Shown: piece after piece, positions 34,714 to 48,697 of the stretch | Position numbering within the stretch: the stretch's first letter is position 1 | Layout of the letters: each line of letters begins with the position of its first letter | Source: Dictyostelium discoideum | Lineage: Eukaryota | NCBI GenBank assembly: GCA_000004695.1 | Contig: CM000153.2 | Coordinates: 1,984,001 to 2,048,000, forward strand | Direction of reading: 5' to 3' | Length of the DNA: 64,000 nt | Notes under the pieces: generated by a model | Database searches by the model: none | The model's input: only the letters and a program-made list of their open reading frames with translations | Told to the model about the DNA's origin: nothing | Position numbers and translations under genes: made by a program

Positions 34714-36655
34714 ATGACAAATAATAAAAACGAAAATGAAAGTAATAATCAATTGGAATCAAGACATACAAAAAAAAAACAAAAAACTAATCACAATGAA
34801 ACAAAAGAAACAATTGATGTTATAATTGAAAAAACAACAACAACAATTCACAACTTAGAAAACCTCAATATAGAAGAATTGAATAAATTTAAACAAATTG
34901 AATTATTAGAAATTGTAAAATCATTTTCAAAGAAAACTAATAATAGAAAAAAGAAATCAGAATTAATTGAAATTTTAAAAGAAGAGATTGAGAATCGTAA
35001 ACTATTAATACAAGAAAATGAAAATAAAATTAAAAATAATAACCCATTTAATAAAAACTTTAAAGAATTATTAATAAAAGATGTTGATAATAATGAATTA
35101 TTATTTTGGAAAATTTTTAGAAATAAAGTTTTATTTAAAAATATAATATCAAAATTTGAATTTAAACATTTTTCACAAAATTATGATTCAATGATATCAA
35201 TTCATAATTTACTAGCAAATGATAAAATTTCAATTGTAAAAGATAAAGTAAACAATAATAGTAAATACCTTGTATTTACTCCATCATCATATGGTACAAA
35301 TGGTACATCAACTACAATAACAACAACAAATCTTTATCAAACTTTTAGTATTATATTTTCAAAATTTCAAACTGATGATCTTGATACTTATAATTTCTTT
35401 AAAAATTTATTTAAAAATTATGGTAATAAATTCATTGAAGAATTAAAATATATTAAATTTATAAATGGTGATGGTGATGGTAATGGTAATGATGATAGTG
35501 ATGATGATAGTGATGATGATAGTGATGATGATAGTGATGGTAATGGTAATGATGATAGTAATGATGATAGTGATGATGATAGTGATGATGATAGTGATGG
35601 TAATGGTAATGGTGATGGTAATGGTAATGATGATAGTGATGATGATAGTGATGATGATGGTGATGGTAATGGTAATGGTGATGGTAATGGTAATGATGAT
35701 AGTGATGATGATAGTGATGACGATGATAGATATTTTTGTTCAACTGATTTTATTAGGACTATGATAATTTATAATTGTGTGCCAGCAGTGAAGGTATTAA
35801 TGAATGAATTTAATTTTATTCCAACTGTTGATAATTTCTTTAAAAAAGTTGTTGGATATGGTTCATTAGAAATTTTAAAATTTTTATTAATTAATGATGA
35901 AAATCAAGAAAGAAGAAATAAATTAATTTCTCAATTGAAATCAAAAAAAAGTCATTTACAAATTTGGAGAGAAATTTCATCATCAACTTTATTTCAAGGT
36001 TTTTATGGTCCATTGAATATGAATTATAAAATAGAGAAATTTAAAACAATTTTATTTTTACTTGAAAATAATTATTTAAAAATTCCTCAAAAAAATGAAG
36101 ATTTAAATGATATTAAAGTATCATTATATTCAACTTCACCAATTACAAATTATTTATTATTAAAAGATTTAATATTAAGTTGTAAATTATTAAATCAATT
36201 ATTAAATAATAATACAAATAATAATAGTTATTATGATGAAATTATTAAAAAATTTACAAATAAACAATTAGAATCAATGTTAAAAGATTTAATTAATTGG
36301 GAACTAAATGAAAATGAAAATAAACAGATTATAAAAGATTTATTAAATTATTGGTATAGGGAAAGTGGTACTTCAAAAATTGATTATGAATTTTATTTAT
36401 GTTTTGATAAACTAGAGAATGATAAAGAAATAAGGTCAGTTCATAAAACAAACTTTATATTAGCATTACAATATGGAAATTTTGAAATTCTAATGAAATC
36501 AGTCCCAAATCAATTTGGTTTAAAGGAATTTGAAAGAACTGTAATAACATATGATATCGATATTCAACATAAACCAAATTATCTATTTACTCATTGTCAT
36601 AATAAAGAGAAACAAAAGGAGTTTATTTCATCTTGGATTCAATATATTAGTATTG

Positions 36656-36704
<49 letters not shown>

Positions 36705-37851
36705 TAGTAGTGGTGGTGGTTTTTGTTTAAATTATTATTATTATTATATTTTACTTATTTTAATTCAAAATGACGATATTGAATTATTAAAATTTTCAAT
36801 TAATAAGTTACCACTTGATAAATTAATTATAAATTTTGAAAAACATAATAATATTATAATTTCAGATTATATAAAATCAGTTGAAATGTTAGAATTCCTT
36901 TATAAAGAATATGGTTCAAATAATATTTTAAAACCTTGTTTACAAATATTTCTTTTACATCTTTCAAATTTAGAATTATTAAAATGTTTTGAAAAATTGG
37001 AAAATTTATCATCAAAAAGGAGAATTGTTTTATTAGAAGATAATGTTAAAAAATGTGTTTTCAATTTACCAATGGTTTCTCATATTATTAAAAATGTTGA
37101 AAATATTTATGAAATTAAAGAATTTGCATTTAAAGGAATATTTAATGATATTGATAATAATCATGAAAATCAAATAGATGAATTAATTAATTTATTACAA
37201 TATATAGTTAAATTTACAGATATTAAAATTAATACATTTTTAAATTATTACTATACAAACTTTATATTATTCACTAAAATACCAAATTTTAAAATTTTAA
37301 AATTTATTGATTGGTTAATTTCAATTAACTATTCAATTATTAATGATGGGTTTTTTTGTGAAAATAAATTAAAAATATTAAAATATTTAGTTGGTAGAAT
37401 TCAAGAAATTGATGAATTCTTTCCAGACAAGTGGATAAATTCAGGTGGTGGTAATATTTACCCTTTAGCTAAATTTATAGTTTTAAAATGTGATTTAGAT
37501 GCATTGGATTTAATAATGAAAGAAATTAATAATTCAAATAAAGCTATCAAAAATGATGATATATCAAATTTCATTTTCATTCTGTTAGGATTTGCATGTG
37601 AAATTGGTCAATTAAAAATTTTAGAACATATTAAATTACACCATTGTCAACTATTTAATAAGAAATCAAAAAGTGGTGGTTGGTTCTCTCAAATTCAATT
37701 AAACTCTTTAATAAATAAATCAATTATTTCAAATCATATCAATTGCACTGAATTTCTATTACAATATTCAACTATATCTCAATCACAATTTAAAAAAATT
37801 ACTGCTAAATCTGGTATTTCTTATACTTATTTTAAAAATAAAATAAAATAA
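34714..37851 (+). CDS. Uncharacterised 1045-aa protein with an acidic (GDGNGN/DDSDDDSDDDSD)n tandem repeat (nt 35459..35745) and poly-N; single exon
   Basis: Uninterrupted ORF 34714..37851 with no recognisable catalytic motif. The repeat unit, ggtaatggtaatgatgatagtgatgatgatagtgat, recurs about 8 times. Confidence 0.7.
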
Positions 37852-38055
37852 AATGTTTTTAAAAAAAAGAAAAAAAAAAAAAGATATATTCATTTTTTTT
37901 ATTTTTTATATCATTTTGTGTATTTTTGGGAGATGAAAAATAAAATTAAATAATTGTTTAAAAAAAAAAAAGAAAATAAAAAATAAAAATAAAAAAATGA
38001 AAATTTTTTTTTTTTTTTTTTTCGTGTAAGATTTGAATGCTTTTAATCTTTTAAT

Positions 38056-38093
<38 letters not shown>

Positions 38094-38586
38094 AAAAATT
38101 ATGGACAAAAATAAAAAAAAAAAAAAAAATAATTATAATAAATAAATAAAAAAAAAAAAAAATAAATGATGAATAGTTCAAAAGTACTGAAGTATGTGAT
38201 TGTGATTAAATAATTATTTAAACACCACCACAAAATTGTGAGTTGATAAAAAAAATATTTTTACTTTTTTTTTTTTTTTTTATGTAAAAATGATAATGTA
38301 TTATTATAATAGAGTTTTGAATAATTTTTATTATTTTGTAATTTTATTCAGAGAATTTCAAAAAAAAAAAAATAATAATCTGAATGTAAAAAGAAACTTT
38401 CTTTAAATAACAAGAAATAAGTTATTATCATTTTTTTAATTTTGTTTTTTTTAATAAAAAATGATAAATACACATACAAAAATTAAAGTATAAATAAGAA
38501 TGAAAATTATAATTTTTAATCATTAAATATTCAAACAAAAAAATAATAAACAAGCAAATAATTATATTTTTAAAAAAAAAAAAAAA

Positions 38587-39366
38587 ATGAAATCAATTAG
38601 TATAGTATCTTTATTAATTTTATATTGTATAATAAGTTGTGGTAATGTTGTTGTAAATGCAATAAATGGTCAAGTAACATATTATAATGATCAGGGCTAT
38701 GGCTCCTGTGGTACTTTGATTGATGCAAATACCCAATTTTTAGCAGCAGTTCCACCAGGATTTTGGACAACAACAAATCCAAATTTAGATCCAGTTTGTG
38801 GTAAACAAGTAAAATTAACATATAATGGTAATTCAATTACACTTCCAGTACGTGATAAATGCCCAGGTTGTCCAAATAATAATATTGATATTAGTGCTCC
38901 TGCATTTATTCAATTAATTGGTAGTCTTGGACCTGGTAGAGTTAGTGTAACTTGGGAATTTGTAGGTAGTAGTTCAAGTGGTGGTAGCACAACCGGAACA
39001 GTTTCAACAACAAATGGTAATAGTGGTACTTGTCCAAGAAAAGCATCAGTTAGTGTAGGTCAAGGCTGTTATGATGTATGGGTATCAAAATGTAACAATG
39101 CTTGGGATGAGAACCAATTATACGCTGCTAATCCAGGTGTATCATGTACTTCTCTTCAAGTTGGTCAACAATTATGTTGTGGTGGTAGTACAACTGGTGG
39201 TAGTGTTACTTGTTCAAGAAAAGCATCAGTTAGTGCAGGTCAAGGTTGTTATGATGTATGGGTATCAAAATGTAATAATGCTTGGAATGAGAACCAATTC
39301 TTTGCTGCAAATCCAGGTGTTTTTTGTACTGATCTTCAAGTTGGTCAACAATTATGTTGTAATTAA
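38587..39366 (+). CDS. Secreted RlpA/barwin-like double-psi beta-barrel (DPBB) protein with a Ser/Thr linker and two C-terminal ~50-aa six-Cys modules (259 aa); paralog A
   Basis: Signal peptide MKSISIVSLLILYCIISCGNVVVNA. DPBB motifs GQVTYYNDQGYGSCG...DPVCGKQVKLTYNGNSITLPVRDKCPGCPNNNIDISAPAF. Then SSSGGSTTGT, then two copies of TCPRKASVS(V/A)GQGCYDVWVSKCNNAW(D/N)ENQ(L/F)(Y/F)AANPGV(S/F)CT(S/D)LQVGQQLCC. Confidence 0.8.
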   Translation: MKSISIVSLLILYCIISCGNVVVNAINGQVTYYNDQGYGSCGTLIDANTQFLAAVPPGFWTTTNPNLDPVCGKQVKLTYNGNSITLPVRDKCPGCPNNNIDISAPAFIQLIGSLGPGRVSVTWEFVGSSSSGGSTTGTVSTTNGNSGTCPRKASVSVGQGCYDVWVSKCNNAWDENQLYAANPGVSCTSLQVGQQLCCGGSTTGGSVTCSRKASVSAGQGCYDVWVSKCNNAWNENQFFAANPGVFCTDLQVGQQLCCN

Positions 39367-40270
39367 TCAATCATTAATCATTTTCAATAATATTCTAAAA
39401 CTATAATTATTTATTTATTTAAAACTTTTATTTATTAATAAATGTAAATTTATTTTTTATTTCAAATTTTTAAAAAAACTGTTAATTTCTTTTTAATGGT
39501 TGAAAAGTTGTTATTTTTTTTTTTTTAATTAAAATTATTTGAACATTAAAAAAGAAATTCAAATTTCTTCGATTTTTTTATTTAGATTTAAATTATTTTT
39601 TTTTTAATTTTTTTTTTTTTAAAAAATCGAAATGTCAAAACCAAAAAAGAATGCGTGCGACGTGGCTTTTTTTTTTAATTATTATAATAATGAATCATTT
39701 TTAAGATTCACCCGAATGGTGAGAATAGTGAATTTAAATTTCGTACACAGTTATATAAGGTTGGATATTTTAAAGTCTTTTTTGTTTGTCTATGGACTAG
39801 ATATTTTTTTTTTTTTTAATAAAATAATGTCTTTTTATTAAATAAAAAAAAAAAAAATTTCCTTAATTCGTGATTGGTTAAAATAATTTATGATTAGATC
39901 TTATTGGGGGGTTCGGATAATTATTATTTTTGAATTCAAAAATAAAAAAATTAAAAAAAATTAATAAATTCAACGGTTTATAATAATAATAATGATGTTG
40001 ATGACTTCTGGTCTTGTTCTTTTTTTTTTTTTGAAAAAATCTTATTTTTCTAATAATGTAATTTTTGCTACCTCTTAAAAAAACTATAGATCTAATTCTT
40101 TATGGTATTAGGATCTATGCCTGATATTTAATTTTTTTATAATAATAATAGTTTATTGTTAAATTTTTGTTTAAATAGCAATTTAATTTTTTTTTTTATA
40201 AATCATTAAAATCATAAATTAAAAAACAAATAAAAAAAAAATAAATAAATATATATATAAAAAAAATAAA

Positions 40271-41047
40271 ATGAAATTAATTTTAAGTTTATTAACTTTA
40301 TCAATTTTATATTGTGCTAATACTGTAAATGCAATTAGTGGTCAAGTAACATATTATAATGATGTAGGTTATGGCGCCTGTGGTACTGCTATTGATGCAA
40401 ATACACAATTTTTAGCAGCAGTTCCACCAGCTTATTGGACTACAGCAAATCCAAATTTAGATCCAGTTTGTGGTAAACAAGTAAAATTAACATATAATGG
40501 TAATTCAATTACACTTCCAGTACGTGATAAATGCCCAGGTTGTCCAACTAATAATATTGATATTAGTGCTCCTGCATTTACTCAATTAGTAGGTAGTCTT
40601 GGACCTGGTAGAGTTAGTGTAACTTGGGAATTCCTTGGTGGTAGTTCAAGTGGTGGTACAACAGGTACAGTTTCAACAACAACTGGTGGTAGTGGTACTT
40701 GTCCAAGAACTGCAACAGTTAGTGCAGGTCAAGGCTGTTATGACGTATGGGTATCAAATTGTAATAATGCTTGGGATGAGAACCAATTCTACGCTGCTAA
40801 TCCAGGTGTATCATGTACTGCTCTTCAAGTTGGTCAAAAATTATGTTGTGGTGGTACATCATCATCATCTTCAACAACTGGTAGTGCTTCTTGTTCAAGA
40901 AAAGGTACTGTTGATGCAGGTCAAGGTTGTTATGATGTATGGGTATCAAAATGTAATAATGCATGGAATGAGAATCAATTCTATGCTGCAAATCCAGGTG
41001 TTGTTTGTACTGATCTTCAAGTTGGCCAACAATTATGTTGTAATTAA
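40271..41047 (+). CDS. Secreted RlpA/barwin-like DPBB protein, paralog B (258 aa); tandem duplicate of 38587..39366
   Basis: The architecture is the same and the DNA is near-identical across the DPBB domain (ggtcaagtaacatattataatgat... in both). It has the same two C-terminal Cys modules. The flanking intergenic DNA is unrelated. Confidence 0.8.
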   Translation: MKLILSLLTLSILYCANTVNAISGQVTYYNDVGYGACGTAIDANTQFLAAVPPAYWTTANPNLDPVCGKQVKLTYNGNSITLPVRDKCPGCPTNNIDISAPAFTQLVGSLGPGRVSVTWEFLGGSSSGGTTGTVSTTTGGSGTCPRTATVSAGQGCYDVWVSNCNNAWDENQFYAANPGVSCTALQVGQKLCCGGTSSSSSTTGSASCSRKGTVDAGQGCYDVWVSKCNNAWNENQFYAANPGVVCTDLQVGQQLCCN

Positions 41048-41135
41048 TAATTTCAAATTAATAATTGATGAATATTATTAAGATAAAATAAAAACAATAT
41101 TTTTTGATAGCAAAGGGTTAATGATGTAAGATTTT

Positions 41136-41173
<38 letters not shown>

Positions 41174-41453
41174 CAAAAATATTAAGAGAGAGTGGTTGAT
41201 ATAGTACTATATCATAAATTAATTTCAATGGTAATCATACCCCAAACATTATTATTAATGTTAATGGGGTGTTTAAATTATTGATTTAAAATTGATATTA
41301 TATCTGTTATTCATTTAAAATTAATTTTTTAAAACTAGAGAATTAATTTATTTAGTTTTTAAAATAAGTATAAAAAATACCAGATTTAGCAGTAATTTTT
41401 TTTTCTGCAACAAAACCCATTTTAATTATTTTTTTATTTTATGTGTTTCTGAA

Positions 41454-41497
<44 letters not shown>

Positions 41498-41722
41498 ATT
41501 AACTATTTAAAGGGGTTAAAATAATAGTGATATTCTCAAAATACTTCAAAGACGATTTTATTGTTATTTTTATAACACTCTTTAGAAAGGTATTATAATT
41601 TATATGATTTTTTTTTTTATTCAAAGATTTTTTTTTTTTTTTTTTTTAATACTAACCATTTTTAATAAACAAATATTAATAAAAAAGATTAAATAAAAAA
41701 AAATAAAAAAAAAATTCAACTT

Positions 41723-42718
41723 TTGAGAAATGAAAGAGAAATTTCTAAAGCATTATTTAAAATGATTTTTAGATCAGTACCAACAATTACAATAAATAAT
41801 AAAAAGTTTAAATTTTTAAAAGATGGTCAATTTGATTTTATTGATATATCTTATAAATGTGGAATTGATAAAAAAACTAAATACATTCGAAATGTAAGTC
41901 AACCATTTCTAAATTCAATAAAACAAAAAGAATTTTTATTTACATTAATATTTTATTAGAAACTATCAGATATATTAATAAACACATAGATTGTGTCGTT
42001 ATCCACAAAGGTTGCAAATTGGAGTATTTCTATGAATTTTATGAAAACTTTAGAGGTTTTTTCAAGGTTTTTTATTATAATAGAAACATAATTATTACCT
42101 CTATTCCGGGTATCGCTCGTTTTACAGCTGGATTATGGTTTAACACTGCCACTTGTAAATATTCAGAATTTGGCCATAATATAGTTATATCACCACAACG
42201 TTCCAGGCATTAGGCTAGTACTCTTTGTCATAGTAGGTGCAAGAGATCCGATCAATGGTTCATGGAATGGGTTTGCCTTTAATAGGTCAGTTAGCATTCA
42301 ATATCCAACTGCTGCAATTTCATTTGGTACGAGAGCGTCCACCATCAGAAATGAAAATAAAGTTTTAAATCTTACAGGAAACCAATCACAACTCAGTGGT
42401 TCCACTTCAACAAACAACAAACAACAAGCCAATTTAATTCCAAATAATCCACCATTCTTTATTACTGTAAGTGTGTGTTTGATAACAAATCACTTTTATT
42501 TATTGATCATTTTTTTATTAACTAAATTGATATTAAACAACTTTAATATTACCAAAAATTAGATTCCATCAGCTATCCTCTTAAGTGGAGTTGAACCTAT
42601 TAAAATTGATCCCCAACCCCAAAATTTCGTATTTGATCTTTTTCTTTTGAAAAATAGAATAGATATACTTCCAAATTTCTTTCAAAGTGGCCATAATATT
42701 TACATTGAACCCAATTAA
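41723..42718 (+). pseudogene. Fragmented coding region (candidate pseudogene or mis-called multi-exon gene); unusually G+C-containing for this locus
   Basis: Frame-1 ORF 41723..41959 (MIFRSVPTITINNKKFKFLKDGQF...KYIRN, then GTAAGT). Frame-1 ORF 42019..42213 (...FTAGLWFNTATCKYSEFGHNIVISPQRSRH). A frame-2 open stretch 42185..42466 (GARDPINGSWNGFAFNRSVSIQYPTAAISFGTRAS...NNPPFFIT) ends at a GTAAGT donor at 42467. Acceptor AATTAG|ATT at 42562 is followed by a 52-codon terminal exon to the stop at 42716-42718. The upstream pieces cannot be joined without a frameshift. Confidence 0.35.
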
Positions 42719-42752
42719 AAATAAAAAAAATAATAATAAAAATAAAAATAAA

Positions 42753-42783
<31 letters not shown>

Positions 42784-43106
42784 ACAAATATAATTATGCT
42801 ATTATACTAAACAAATTTTAATCAAAAAAAATAATTAAAATAAAATATTATAAAATAAAATAAAATGATTAGATTCATTTTTTATTTTCTATATCATTTT
42901 TGGTATATTCCAGAGCTCTCAATTTTGAAAAATTAAAATTTTTTTTTTTTTTTTTTTTTTGTGTGTCAGATTCGAATGTTAATACAAAAAAAAAAAAAAA
43001 GATAATAATAAATATCATCAATAAATAAACAATTAAATTATATATTCAAATGAAAATAAAAAAATAAATGATGACGTTGAAATTAAGATATTTTTTGGAA
43101 ACGATA

Positions 43107-43149
<43 letters not shown>

Positions 43150-43372
43150 TTTTTTTTTTTTAATTTTTTTGAATTTTAAAAAAAAAAAAAAATAAAAAAA
43201 ATTGAAATTTTTTTCACCTTAAACAGTGTTTATATATTTAATTTTAGTTTTTTTTATTTTATTTTATTTTTTATTTTTTTTGTAAAAAAACTAAAAACAT
43301 AATTAAATTAGATTACTATATATATATATATGTATAATATATGAATAAAAAAATATTATTAAAAACATATTA

Positions 43373-43425
<53 letters not shown>

Positions 43426-43461
43426 TTATTATTTATATATATTTATAAATAAATAATAAAA

Positions 43462-45157
43462 ATGACACTAATTCAAAATGAACATCCAGAAATTAGTAAT
43501 ATAATAAATAATATTCAACAAAATCAAAAGAATAATAAAATCAATGATTTGAAAAATTTTTTAGAGAATTCAAAACATTTTGGTGATTTTAGAAAATACT
43601 TAATTGAAAAGAATAAGTATTCATTGGCATCAATGTTACAATGTTATGAATCGATTCAATCATTTAAACAATCATTTTTAGTAGATAATCCACCATTTAA
43701 TTTAAAATTAGCAAATGATATCATATCAACCTTTTTAATTAAACCAACAAATTCAAACGTTTCACCAAACTCGAGTAATTCAAATTTATTTTCAAATAAT
43801 AATAATAATAATAATAATAATGGAACAGGATCATCATCATCATCATCATCACCACCACAATCACAACAACCATCATCATCTTCATTTTATATTGGTTTCA
43901 TTGATGCAAGTGTTTATAATAGTTTAAAAGCTTTATTAGATCCATTGTGGCAAAAACCAACTTCTTCAATTTCTTTAAATAGTTCTGTTAATACAACAAC
44001 AACAACAGCAGCAACAACAACATCTAATAACCCATTATCAACATCATCATCAAGTATTGGTGCTGGTGGTTCATTATTTGATTCATCACCATTAGATTCT
44101 GATTCTGATTTATTTGGTACCCCAACAACACCAGTACCAATACCAACACCAACAAAAACAACAACAACATCAACAGTTGAGGATCCAGAAGAACCAACTA
44201 AAGAACAAATAAATAAACAAAAAGAGATTAAAGATGATTTATCAACACATGTCACCCATAATTTATTCGATATATTAATTGAATTCTTAATATTCAAATT
44301 AGAGCCTGAATTTAGAAAATATATGGCCATAATTACTCCAAATGTATGTTTTTAATTTATCCTTATTATTATTATTATTCTTTGTTTTAAATTTATATAT
44401 ATTTTTTTTTCATTTTTTTTATTTGAAAGTTTTAAAAAGTTGGATCCTTTTTGGAAGATCCTGGGAAAGGCCAAAAAAAAAAATAAAAATAAAAAAAAAA
44501 ATAAAAAAAAAAGAAAAGAAAAAAAAAAAAATAAAAAAAAAAGAAAAAAAAAATTTTATAATTTGACCTAAATTTGCTGATTTTCATATACTGACCTTTT
44601 TTTTTTATTACTTTTAGAACGAACAAAGTTTTAACCCATTAAATAGTAATAATAATAATAACAATAATAATAATAATACAAATACAAATTCAAATATGGT
44701 ATTTGAATCACCATTAACACCAAAGAAAGAGGAAGTTGCAGCCAATTTTTATATAAATAATTTAAATAACAGTAGTAATAGTATAAACTATAATAGATTA
44801 GAAGGAGAGAATAGAATAGTATGGTTTGGAGATCAAGATCATATTCCAGTTTACTATGTGGATCATTTAGGTGGTGCAATAATTCAAGCATTACTATATA
44901 TAACCGAATTTAGATTCCTATTCATTAGTAAACTAACTATGACCGAATTAACATGGATACCATTAGCAACAGTTTATCGTATTGAAAGAGTAACAAGTTT
45001 TAGGTTTGACAGTGCAATTTCAATATGGGGTAAAAATTTTAGGAGGATTGAATTTCATATTGATCCAAAAGAGTTTAAACAACAATCATTTAATACATTA
45101 GGTGGTATTTCTGTAAATAATAATAATAATAATAACAATAGCAATAATAATAATAAC

Positions 45158-45188
<31 letters not shown>

Positions 45189-46822
45189 TGAATAATGGTA
45201 TGAATAATGGTTCACCTTATATTAATGGTGGTAATAATGGTGAATATATTGGTGATATCACTCAACCAATTATATTTAGAATGAGAATATTTGCTTTTCA
45301 AGATGTATCAAATTTATTTGCATTCAAATATTCACCAAATAAATCACAATTACAAGATGGTTGGAGAATATTAAATGATTTTGGTGAATGGTTACGTCAA
45401 GGAATTCTATCAGAGACAGCAGGTTACAATATGAAATGGCGTTACTCTGAAAAGAATATTGAATATATTAATCCAACCTATCCAAAATGGTTGGTTGTAC
45501 CACATAATATTTCCGATGAAGAAGTTGGTATTTGTATGAATTTCCGTTCAAAAGGTCGTATTCCAGCATTATCTTGGATAAGTAGAGATGGTGTACCTTT
45601 GGCACGTTCATCACAACCAATGGTTGGTATCACTAGACAAAAGAGTGTTGTTGATGAAAAGTTGGTGGATTCAATTCGTATGGCTTGTCCAAGTGGTAAA
45701 TCATTATTCCTATTGGATGCTCGTCCAAAAGCAAATGCAATTGCAAACGTTGCAAAAGGTATGGGCTATGAATTGAATTACAATTGTGATATTGAATTCC
45801 TTGGTATTGCAAATATTCATTCAATGCGTGACTCTATCAATAAATTGGAACAATTTTGTCAATCAAATAACGATGAAAATTGGTTAAGTGGTCTTAATGA
45901 AACTCGTTGGTTAGATCATATTCGTACACTTTTATTAGGTGTAGCCAGAGCAGTCAGTCTCATCAATAAAGGTCATCCAGTTTTATTGCATTGTAGTGAT
46001 GGTTGGGATAGAACTTCTCAACTCTCCTCTCTAACTATGATCATTCAAGATCCATACTTTCGTACTATTGAAGGTTTCCAAGTTTTAATCGAAAAGGAAT
46101 GGTTAAGCTTTGGTCATTGCTTTATGAATCGTGTAAGACATGGTGATCGTAATTGGTACTCTGATAGTCAACGTTCACCAGTATTCCTTCAATTTATCGA
46201 TTGTGTTTATCAATTAATGAATCAATATCATGACTACTTCCAATTCAATGAAAACTATTTAATTACAATCTTGGATGCCCTTTACTCTTGTCAATTTGGT
46301 ACATTCCTTTGTAATAGTGAAAAGGAAAGACAAACTATTAAAAAGGATACAGTATCACTTTGGAGTTATATAAATTCAAATCCATTGACTCCCTATCTAA
46401 ATCCATTCTATATTTCCTATGAACATGAAACATCAAGAGCTTTCCATTTACCAGAATGGAGAAGTGAACATATTACCCTATGGAAAGGTTATTACCTTCG
46501 TTATTGGAGAAATCCATTAAAGGAACCAATGGATTGGCAAAAGGTCTCCATTGGTTTAAAACTTAAAAACAATCATCTCTTACGTCAAATCCAAGATTTA
46601 ATACTTCAAAATCAACAATTAACATTGGATAATTTATCATTACAAGAAGAAAAGTACAAACAAACTCAAGAAGTTGAAAATGAGAAATTAGAAAATCAAG
46701 AAAAAGAAAAAAGTGATCATAGTAAAAAATTAAATCAAGAAAATGATATCACCATACCACTCAATAATGAAACTATATTAAACGAAAGTGAACCTGTTGT
46801 AGAAAATGAAATAAATCAATAA
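43462..46822 (+). CDS. Myotubularin-related phosphoinositide 3-phosphatase (GRAM/PH + PTP domain, CSDGWDRT active site, C-terminal coiled coil); 2 exons 43462..44343, 44618..46822 (~1028 aa)
   Basis: LLHCSDGWDRTSQLSSLTMIIQDPYFRTIEGFQVLIEKEWLSFGH is the myotubularin CX5R catalytic loop. A GRAM-like RIVWFGDQDHIPVYYVD...TWIPLATVYRIERV lies upstream. Exon 1 (ORF 43462..44355) ends at a GTATGT donor at 44344 (phase 0). The acceptor TTTTAG|AAC at 44616-44617 is in frame with ORF 44696..46822 and no stop intervenes. Confidence 0.8.
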
Positions 46823-46961
46823 ATTATATTAATTATTAATTTAGTAAACAATTCAAACAAACAAACAAAAAATAAAATAAAATAAAATAAATAAATAATA
46901 AAAATAAAAAATCGATATATAAATACAAATGACAATAACAAGTTTTTAATTTTTATTTATT

Positions 46962-47441
46962 TTAAAATTTAAAATAAAAAGAACTTGGATAAACCATTGG
47001 TATTTTAATTAGACCATTCAAAACTTGATCTAAAAATGATATTGGATTTGTTGTTGATGATGATGATGACGATGATGATGGTATTGAGTGTTGCTGATTT
47101 AATTTCTTTTGAATAAATTCACAAAATTTAAAAAGTGGGAAATAGTTTATAAGTTCTTGATTTTGTGATTGTTGATGTTGTTGATATCTTTGTTCTTGTT
47201 GGTGATTAATACCATTTGCATTGATATTGTTATTGTTATTATTATTTTTATTGATTACTATTAAATCTATTAATTTAACAATTAAATTACAAGAGAAAAT
47301 AAAAGATTCCAATATTTGCTTTGTATCTAAAGGAACTGTATGGTTGATAGATTTTGATTGAATATTTAAAAGTAATTGATATTTTTGTTCTAATTGTCTG
47401 AAAATTAATGATTTACTTAAAAATCTCTTTAATAATATTTC

Positions 47442-47519
<78 letters not shown>

Positions 47520-48697
47520 GCCATCATCGTTGCATTCTAATAAAAATGATTTCAAATTTAAAATATTAAATAAATATTTCTCATGTAATAATATAAAATC
47601 TTCTTGGAATTGAAGTGATCTTTCTTGCTGTGAACTTGCTTTTAGAGAAACAATAGATGTATGATAATTTGATAATTGATTTAATATCTTTGAATTATTA
47701 TTATTATTGTTATTATTAGTGTTGTTTTTATTGGTGGTGATGCTATAAATTGAAATTTCATTCTCTAAAGTTGCAATAGATAATAAACCTTTTAACCAAA
47801 GGTAATTACATTCAGATTCAACTTTATGAATTAAAGTTGAATAAATAACCATTGCGATCTTATGAAATCCATGACGTTGTGATAATTGTGCTAAATTATA
47901 ACAACTCCATAATTGATCAGGTTTTGGATTCTCTAAAATATATTGTATCAATGGTAATAGTTGCTCTGTTATCTCTTGAATCTTTTGATTATTTTCATCA
48001 AATGTTTTAAATATACACATAAAAATTGACATCTAAAATAATAATAATAATAATAACAATAATAATATATTAATAAATGTTTTTTTAAAAATTTAGAATT
48101 AAAATTAAAATTTTTTTAATACATACAGGTATTGAATATTTACAATCTTGCTTATTTATTCCATTACTAATACCATTGTTATTTCTATTAATGATGTTAT
48201 TATTATTATTGTTACTATTATTATTATTATTATTATTATTATTGAAATTATTGTTTATTAACTGTACACTATTTTCTTTAATAATTAAATTATTTAAATA
48301 ATCTAATATTAATTTAAACCAACCATTTTGATTTAAAACCGATTTATTCATTGGTATACACATTGATAGACAATGGAATAATGATTTTAAAATTGAATCT
48401 TTAATTTATAAAAAAAAAAAAATTAGTAACAAACAATAAATAAAAAAAAATGGAAAATAAAAAAATAATACATACAAGGTATTTCATTTAATAGTGATAT
48501 AATTGTAGTTGTAATTGATTTTAATGGTTTTGGATCCTTTTTAATTAATCTAATTATTGATTTTAAAAAAACTGATGTTTTATTTAATGTTGATTTATTT
48601 TCATTAATATTAGTATTGTTATTTGTTGATGTTGTAAATTGAGTTTTTAATATTACACATATATTATTCACTGTTTGATTCAATATTGATTCTATTA

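Follow-up and report, generated by a model that had tools for sequence, protein, structure and literature searches.

Pseudogenes concealed within apparently normal gene models, their lesions masked by bogus coding-like introns, are a documented artefact in Dictyostelium discoideum (PMC1420674). The closest described cases are the 15 kinase pseudogenes reported by Goldberg et al. 2006 (PMC1420674), which had been predicted as genes with their frameshifts hidden by introns; the bogus introns are coding-like, with a guanine plus cytosine (GC) content well above 15%, they encode the missing homologous sequence, and the parent family is intact elsewhere. Real Dictyostelium introns, by comparison, typically contain less than 15% GC and span 60-250 nucleotides (nt) (PMC1420674). 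The present work deals with a 64,000-nt stretch of D. discoideum AX4 chromosome 4 (the window, with an overall GC content of 22%) and, within it, with positions 41723-42718, which correspond to the annotated hypothetical gene DDB_G0284541 (AX4, 214 amino acids (aa), 5.45-Mb contig). Judged by its homology and gene structure, this locus is likely to be a recently disabled, unprocessed (that is, DNA-duplicated and intron-retaining) pseudogene of the DDB_G0289871 family. The features listed for the kinase pseudogenes recur in it. Unlike them, it derives from a parent family which is uncharacterised and restricted to a species complex, with an identity of about 30-35% to the nearest intact paralogue, and it lies within a strain-lineage-specific segment. 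As such, the locus is an ordinary pseudogene and not a new kind of element.

The DDB_G0289871 family

When the concatenated translation of the locus was used as a query, the search identified DDB_G0284541 itself (P0001; XP_638518.1, UniProt Q54PL4), which is listed as a protein in the databases, and, as second match, ACTFIT_006324 (P0002), a protein of 211 aa from assembly GCA_054883475.1, the two being differing models of one DNA. An exhaustive HMMER search covering 1.84 billion representatives yielded two further relatives, P0003 (E 1.6e-7) and P0004 (E 7e-4). The former is a D. discoideum protein of 345 aa which groups with DDB_G0289871 and with three more proteins from the D. discoideum complex. 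The named members of the resulting family, whose sizes range from 332 to 345 aa, are DDB_G0289871 (Q54GX0; 332 aa, encoded on AX4 chromosome 5), ACTFIW_008316/008317, ACTFIR_002229 and ACTFIZ_011516. A first, sequence-only reading of this DNA had seen no obvious family in the translation, a statement that no longer holds, given that paralogues exist in D. discoideum. The product of DDB_G0289871 has been observed by mass spectrometry (PMC10252828); literature searches returned no comparable detection of DDB_G0284541. No paper came up in full-text searches for DDB_G0284541 or Q54PL4, and DDB_G0284541 had no entry in the supplements of the RNA sequencing papers examined.

Protein searches recovered DDB_G0289871 as the only AX4 member. 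Assembly GCA_054859355.1, which is labelled D. discoideum and is more divergent (about 91-94% identity in the region), contains two intact copies in tandem (L002 4586-5804 and 6001-7204), encoding proteins which are 89% identical. Each of these copies is interrupted by exactly two phase-0 introns, which follow coding nt 213 and 897 and have a GC content of 0.09-0.17. These observations suggest that the copy number of the family varies within the D. discoideum species complex. The family is marked by a conserved block, QPD...FE(I/M)YYSK...ARAR, of which P0008 (ACTFIZ_011516) lacks 38 residues. As regards P0004 (ACTFIZ_003238, from D. cf. discoideum, L005 8001-8741), its site is syntenic with neither AX4 copy, and its annotated 150-nt 'intron' contains an in-frame stop as well as family-homologous codons (PNDNLLLVHEVNFKSK); by this structure, it is probably a second masked pseudogene. 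The 'orphan' DDB_G0284541 can now be tied to a small family which evolves fast, varies in copy number and has other masked decayed copies such as ACTFIZ_003238.

Pfam gave no match to any segment of the locus or to its concatenated translation, while NCBIfam and PADLOC returned nothing relevant for the locus and the paralogues. Within the 64-kb window, no further fragments of the family were found. Transcript evidence was sought in Logan contigs, and the paralogue-bearing contigs turned out to be genomic, with the introns present.

Anatomy of the locus

When the family was compared with the window by tblastn, two parts of the locus matched in two different frames, with E values down to 2e-13. 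In frame mod3=1, positions 41956-42189 matched paralogue residues ~68-142 (P0003/5/6/7/8) with 26-31% identity, and in frame mod3=2, positions 42200-42466 matched residues ~198-294, in the C-terminal half, with 31-35% identity (E 1e-9 to 1e-13). Shuffle tests gave z=9.3 for the former and z=8.9 for the latter (0/1000). The paralogue residues matched in these two frames lie, in the intact members, in one uninterrupted middle exon. The three stop-free segments described in the sequence-only reading are present at 41723/41762-41959 (mod3=2), ~41878-42213 (mod3=1) and 42185-42466 (mod3=2), and the frame overlap reported at 42185-42213 falls between the second and the third.

A custom frameshift- and intron-aware alignment (by dynamic programming) of P0007 to the locus DNA placed introns at 41894-41959, after P0007 residue 59, and at 42467-42562, after residue 286, which are both of the paralogue intron positions. 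The same alignment placed frame changes near 41960-41975 and near 42196, and left paralogue residues ~149-198 unmatched, a stretch which contains the conserved QPD...FE(I/M)YYSK...ARAR block. Fourteen N-terminal residues of the family are also missing.

All the parts of the putative relic lie on the forward strand. Exon 1 (41762-41893, mod3=2; MIFRSVPTITINNKKFKFLKDGQFDFIDISYKCGIDKKTKYIRN) ends in phase 0 at the site of the family's first intron; its similarity to the paralogue N-termini is colinear and weak (z=2.0 with P0007 and 2.7 with P0004), and its chance of being stop-free is about 0.005. It is followed by intron 1 (41894-41959; GTAAGT...TTATTAG, 66 nt, GC 0.167), which has the position and phase of paralogue intron 1. 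The first frame disruption comes immediately afterwards, at 41960-41975: the in-phase reading, KLSDILINT*, runs into a stop at 41987-41989, whereas the homologous reading, (L)ETIRYINKHIDC, sits in frame mod3=1. Direct reading of the sequence revealed no GT/AG combination that would join the homologous frames across these positions. The 5' part of the middle exon (LETIRYINKHIDCVVIHKGCKLEYFYEF...GHNIVISPQRSRH*) occupies 41956-42213 in frame mod3=1 (stop-free p ~0.001). Within the overlap zone, 42185-42213, the frame is disrupted a second time (+1), and it is here that the two ends of a deletion meet, which took out some 40-57 codons (about 50) including the QPD...FE(I/M)YYSK block. The 3' part of the middle exon (VPGIRLVLFVIVGARDPINGSWNGF...NNPPFFIT) occupies 42200-42466 in frame mod3=2. 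Its similarity to the family starts at VPGIRLVLFVIV (42200), ahead of the exon start that dictyBase sets at 42234 and hence inside a dictyBase 'intron'. Intron 2 (42467-42562; GTAAGT...ATTAG, 96 nt, GC 0.188), again with the position and phase of its paralogue counterpart, is the terminal intron already recognised from the letters alone, its GTAAGT being at 42467 and its AG at 42561-42562. The last exon (IPSAILLSGVEPIK...GHNIYIEPN) covers 42563-42718 as foreseen and consists of 51 codons plus the stop TAA (42716-42718); it aligns colinearly with the C-terminal end of the paralogues (z=2.5 with P0007 and 3.6 with P0004). An internal duplication, considered on account of the resemblance between 'GHNIVISP' and 'GHNIYIEP', was dropped, the segments being colinear with different parts of the paralogues.

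Taken as a whole, the locus is like the family members in its colinearity with them, which begins at the MxF(F/R)S start and reaches the C-terminal (I/V)PS(A/T)I...DLF(L/I)L region, and in having both introns at the same positions and in the same phases. It is unlike them in its two frame breaks, the loss of about 50 codons, its shorter N-terminus and its higher GC content at third codon positions (GC3). A functional member has an uninterrupted middle exon carrying the QPD block, whereas here this block has been lost by deletion and the exon is divided between two frames.

A probable disabled duplicate masked by its annotation

The features which define an unprocessed pseudogene were found together at this site, namely homology to a family in the same genome, disabling lesions, retention of the parental introns, and lesions that are not sequencing errors. 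Since the parental introns are retained, the locus is not a retrocopy. It would have originated as a whole-gene, intron-retaining duplicate of the DDB_G0289871 family, which would then have been hit by two frame disruptions and by the internal deletion of its core. The inactivation is presumably recent, given that all the ancestral frames have remained free of stops. In fact, the four homologous frames are all free of stops, whereas composition-matched shuffles stay open in only 0.07-3% of cases (p 0.0007-0.03 each), and the stop-free set includes frames that are left unused by one or other of the public gene models; this fits recent inactivation better than it fits selection on either model. 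Of the options proposed in the sequence-only reading, that of a recently inactivated gene is supported by the homology of two frames to one family, the retained family introns, the deleted core and the stop-free ancestral frames.

The composition of the locus is less unusual than had been supposed. Its GC content had been described as noticeably higher than that of the neighbouring genes, a claim that did not survive measurement: the 300-nt peak is 0.367, compared with 0.38-0.41 in the two upstream genes and 0.33-0.37 in the downstream one. Segment by segment, values of 0.31-0.37 were obtained, against 0.20-0.36 in 23 open reading frames (ORFs) of the window, and the overall GC content of the locus is ordinary for exons; only the third codon positions are modestly enriched. 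The GC3 of segments 2-4 (41971-42715) amounts to 0.245, mostly due to C (C at third positions, 0.18), compared with a mean of 0.124 over 139 coding chunks of 80 codons from the window, about 4% of which reach 0.25. The intact paralogues have a GC3 of 0.15 and a codon usage which is ordinary for Dictyostelium. The codon-usage score of the segments is 0.16-0.55 bits per codon, which places them at or below the lower extreme of the chunks of real window ORFs, with their mean of 0.75 and first percentile of 0.33.

Two public gene models join the pieces in incompatible ways and share only their C-terminal 130 residues. The dictyBase/NCBI model (DDB_G0284541) was reconstructed exactly, with exons 41823-41893, 41970-42154, 42234-42466 and 42563-42718, and begins in the third frame (mod3=0). 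Its 'intron 2' (42155-42233, forward strand; GTAAAT..CATAG, 79 nt, GC 0.354) spans the frameshift. The ACTFIT_006324 model starts at 41762, never leaves frame mod3=2 and treats 42056-42184 as its own 'intron 2' (forward strand; GTTTTT..ATATAG, 129 nt, GC 0.31), which skips most of the homologous frame-1 sequence. The claim that the pieces cannot be joined without a +1 shift is therefore correct for the ancestral frames and incorrect inasmuch as the two published models join them by means of GT..AG 'introns'. Introns here have a GC content of 0.09-0.19, as determined for the paralogue introns, for that of the neighbouring gene (0.153) and for those of the locus itself, whereas the two bridging segments reach 0.31-0.354, and neither of them corresponds to an intron of the intact paralogues. 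Both models would be prediction artefacts, in which an ORF is restored by calling exon-like, GC-rich sequence an intron. The locus probably does nothing at the protein level. The main value of the result is one of annotation hygiene, given that identical DNA yields incompatible proteins in two assemblies, both of which are most likely artefacts.

Several observations weigh against a disabled gene. The GC3 of 0.245, compared with 0.15 in the intact paralogues, is not predicted by simple AT-biased neutral decay; the absence of stops in the ORFs is equally expected under continued selection; the homology of exon 1 is marginally significant; the splice signals of the 79-nt dictyBase/NCBI intron (GTAAAT..TAG) are acceptable, with the same type of donor as paralogue intron 1; and this intron happens to restore the frame between both homologous halves. 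The lack of function is an inference from sequence, and a spliced product is still conceivable.

These points bear on the alternative that DDB_G0284541 is a real, shortened gene of 214 aa, in which formerly coding sequence was intronized to give a new intron at 42155-42233. Intronization would have rescued the frameshift, leaving a family member which has an internal deletion and whose N-terminus, novel and 23 aa long, is translated from the former exon 1 in frame mod3=0. Such a gene would have a complete ORF with canonical GT..AG borders, its second intron would bring the two homologous halves back together, each in its ancestral frame, through a GTAAAT donor and a CATAG acceptor like those of paralogue intron 1, and its segments 2-4 are stop-free. 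Nevertheless, this intron, at 35% GC, lacks the AT-rich character of real introns, both here (0.09-0.19) and in general (typically below 15%; PMC1420674). It also lacks support from homologues, for it contains family-homologous, paralogue-alignable codons (VPGIRLVLFVIV) and the intact paralogues have no intron there; 42155-42233 is probably not a real intron. Moreover, exon 1 of this model lies outside the conserved frame and shows no similarity to the family (z=-1.3), whereas the frame which it leaves unused is both similar and stop-free. The model obtained by another annotation pipeline is incompatible with this one, the locus has lost the conserved core of the family, and no orthologue was found in any relative examined. 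A shortened functional gene, the main rival reading, is accordingly considered unlikely.

Genomic context and the question of a mobile origin

The orthologous regions in related genomes were reached via the neighbouring genes. The locus is carried by a segment of ~1.8 kb, 41106-42917, which is specific to the AX4 lineage. In its place, GCA_054859355.1 carries 466 nt and D. cf. discoideum 227 nt of AT-rich DNA which does not align with it; in both, the two DPBB-LysM genes that precede the locus in AX4 are followed by the myotubularin gene, with no family member between them. In D. firmibasis, about 210 nt (L003 9344-9554) replace 37858-43053, so that a 5.2-kb block including the DPBB-LysM genes and the relic is absent, and D. 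purpureum also lacks the locus at the syntenic site. Parsimony favours a gain in the AX4 lineage over independent loss. Just upstream of the relic and within the AX4-specific segment, an inverted copy (41343-41402, reverse strand) was found of the last 60 coding bases (37792-37851) of an upstream gene of 1045 aa, to which it is ~93% identical; this copy suggests local rearrangement or patch repair. At the borders of 41106-42917, the only repeats were of poly-A/T low complexity, with neither terminal repeats nor target-site duplications, and no transfer RNA (tRNA) genes were found at 36000-48000. The copy would thus have arrived, or survived only, at its present site in the AX4/NC4 lineage, within a small rearranged segment. 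These results may be of interest to those working on gene birth and death or on strain-specific content in social amoebae, no new mechanism being involved.

An alternative which is compatible with a pseudogene is that the locus represents a dead insertion of a mobile or horizontally acquired gene encoding an Uma2-like PD-(D/E)xK nuclease. More broadly, the whole DDB_G0289871 family could be a eukaryotic offshoot of the Uma2-like PD-(D/E)xK enzymes, confined to the D. discoideum complex and selfish or mobile, of which the relic would be a recent insertion scar with local rearrangement; if so, the inverted 60-nt copy of the neighbouring gene's end would mark the rearrangement that accompanied the insertion. 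As for the domain itself, three of the five intact paralogues gave sub-threshold Pfam matches to Uma2/DUF820 (PF05685), the best with E 1e-4 and covering profile positions 2-130 of 172, that is, three quarters of the profile, and the PD...ExK motif would fall in the QPD...FEIYYSK block of the paralogues. The relic, in contrast, gives no match and lacks the motif region. Furthermore, the best score was 18.6 bits against a Pfam gathering cut-off of 27, NCBIfam and PADLOC gave nothing relevant, Protein Data Bank sequence searches with the family profile and with the core region gave neither Uma2 nor any other meaningful match, and an AlphaFold2 model of P0003 built on a 5-sequence family alignment had a mean predicted local distance difference test (pLDDT) value of 31, which made it unusable for fold comparison. 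The Uma2 link of the family is therefore treated as a lead only, drawn from profile similarity.

Regarding mobility, the family was detected in the D. discoideum complex only, it is duplicated in tandem in one strain, its decayed copies occupy non-syntenic sites, the relic locus is present or absent depending on the assembly, and its GC3 is raised. Against this stands the lack of terminal repeats, target-site duplications or nearby tRNA genes. A horizontal origin is opposed by the exhaustive HMMER search, which revealed Dictyostelium relatives only and none from bacteria or viruses, and by a tblastn comparison of the paralogue core with plasmids, which gave a single chance match. In addition, the existence of intact paralogues with ordinary Dictyostelium codon usage and with introns argues against a foreign source. 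The option of a horizontally acquired or transposable-element-derived ORF, raised when the sequence was first inspected, is not supported by any of these tests, although the locus does lie in a lineage-specific segment. On balance, an insertion of a mobile nuclease gene is regarded as improbable, and the notion of a selfish Uma2-like family as equally hard to credit.

Remaining alternatives

The ACTFIT_006324 model could itself describe a real gene of 211 aa, read in frame mod3=2 throughout with 42056-42184 spliced out. It does use the homologous frame of exon 1 and the full homologous 3' half, including VPGIRLVLFVIV. However, its 22-codon exon 2 (IVSLSTKVANWSISMNFMKTLE) shows no similarity to the family, and its 129-nt intron, with 31% GC and a poor GTTTTT donor, removes a significantly homologous, stop-free stretch of 85 codons in frame 1. 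This model is very improbable as a description of a working gene.

At face value, two frames overlapping within 29 nt are the pattern expected from a single-base error, and a sequencing indel in a real gene had indeed been put forward. Nevertheless, 41723-42718 is base-for-base identical in GCA_054883475.1, and over 13 kb this assembly differs from the window only in the lengths of intergenic homopolymers. Since it differs in homopolymers elsewhere, it constitutes an independent sequence, and a sequencing indel is excluded. Moreover, the repair of a single indel would not be enough, as two separate frame corrections and about 50 missing codons are needed to restore a full-length member. An indel introduced into an intact gene by sequencing or assembly is, in effect, refuted. 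Lastly, programmed ribosomal frameshifting, suggested by a 0-frame ending in ...TCC AGG CAT TAG with the rare codon AGG near the stop, deserves negligible credence, given that it would take two shifts of different sign, that the sequence contains no known slippery heptamer, that the intact paralogues are read without any frameshift, and that a large piece of conserved sequence has been deleted at the very place of the shift.

Neighbouring genes and further observations

Upstream of the locus, Pfam identified two tandem DPBB_1+LysM genes, at 38587-39366 and 40271-41047, whose DNA is 87% identical. One of them is named 'speract/scavenger receptor domain-containing protein' by NCBI, while Pfam sees DPBB and LysM. 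Downstream lies a myotubularin-family gene (43462-46822) with one intron of 274 nt. An ORF of 297 aa and the myotubularin ORF of 708 aa form a single gene of 1028 aa, interrupted by this intron at 44344-44617 (GTATGT..TTTTAG, GC 0.153). An Rfam scan of 40900-43500 at E<=1 gave no match, so that no non-coding RNA accounts for the region. Elsewhere in the window, two runs of exactly 100 N each, at 17302-17401 and 23766-23865, represent assembly gaps.

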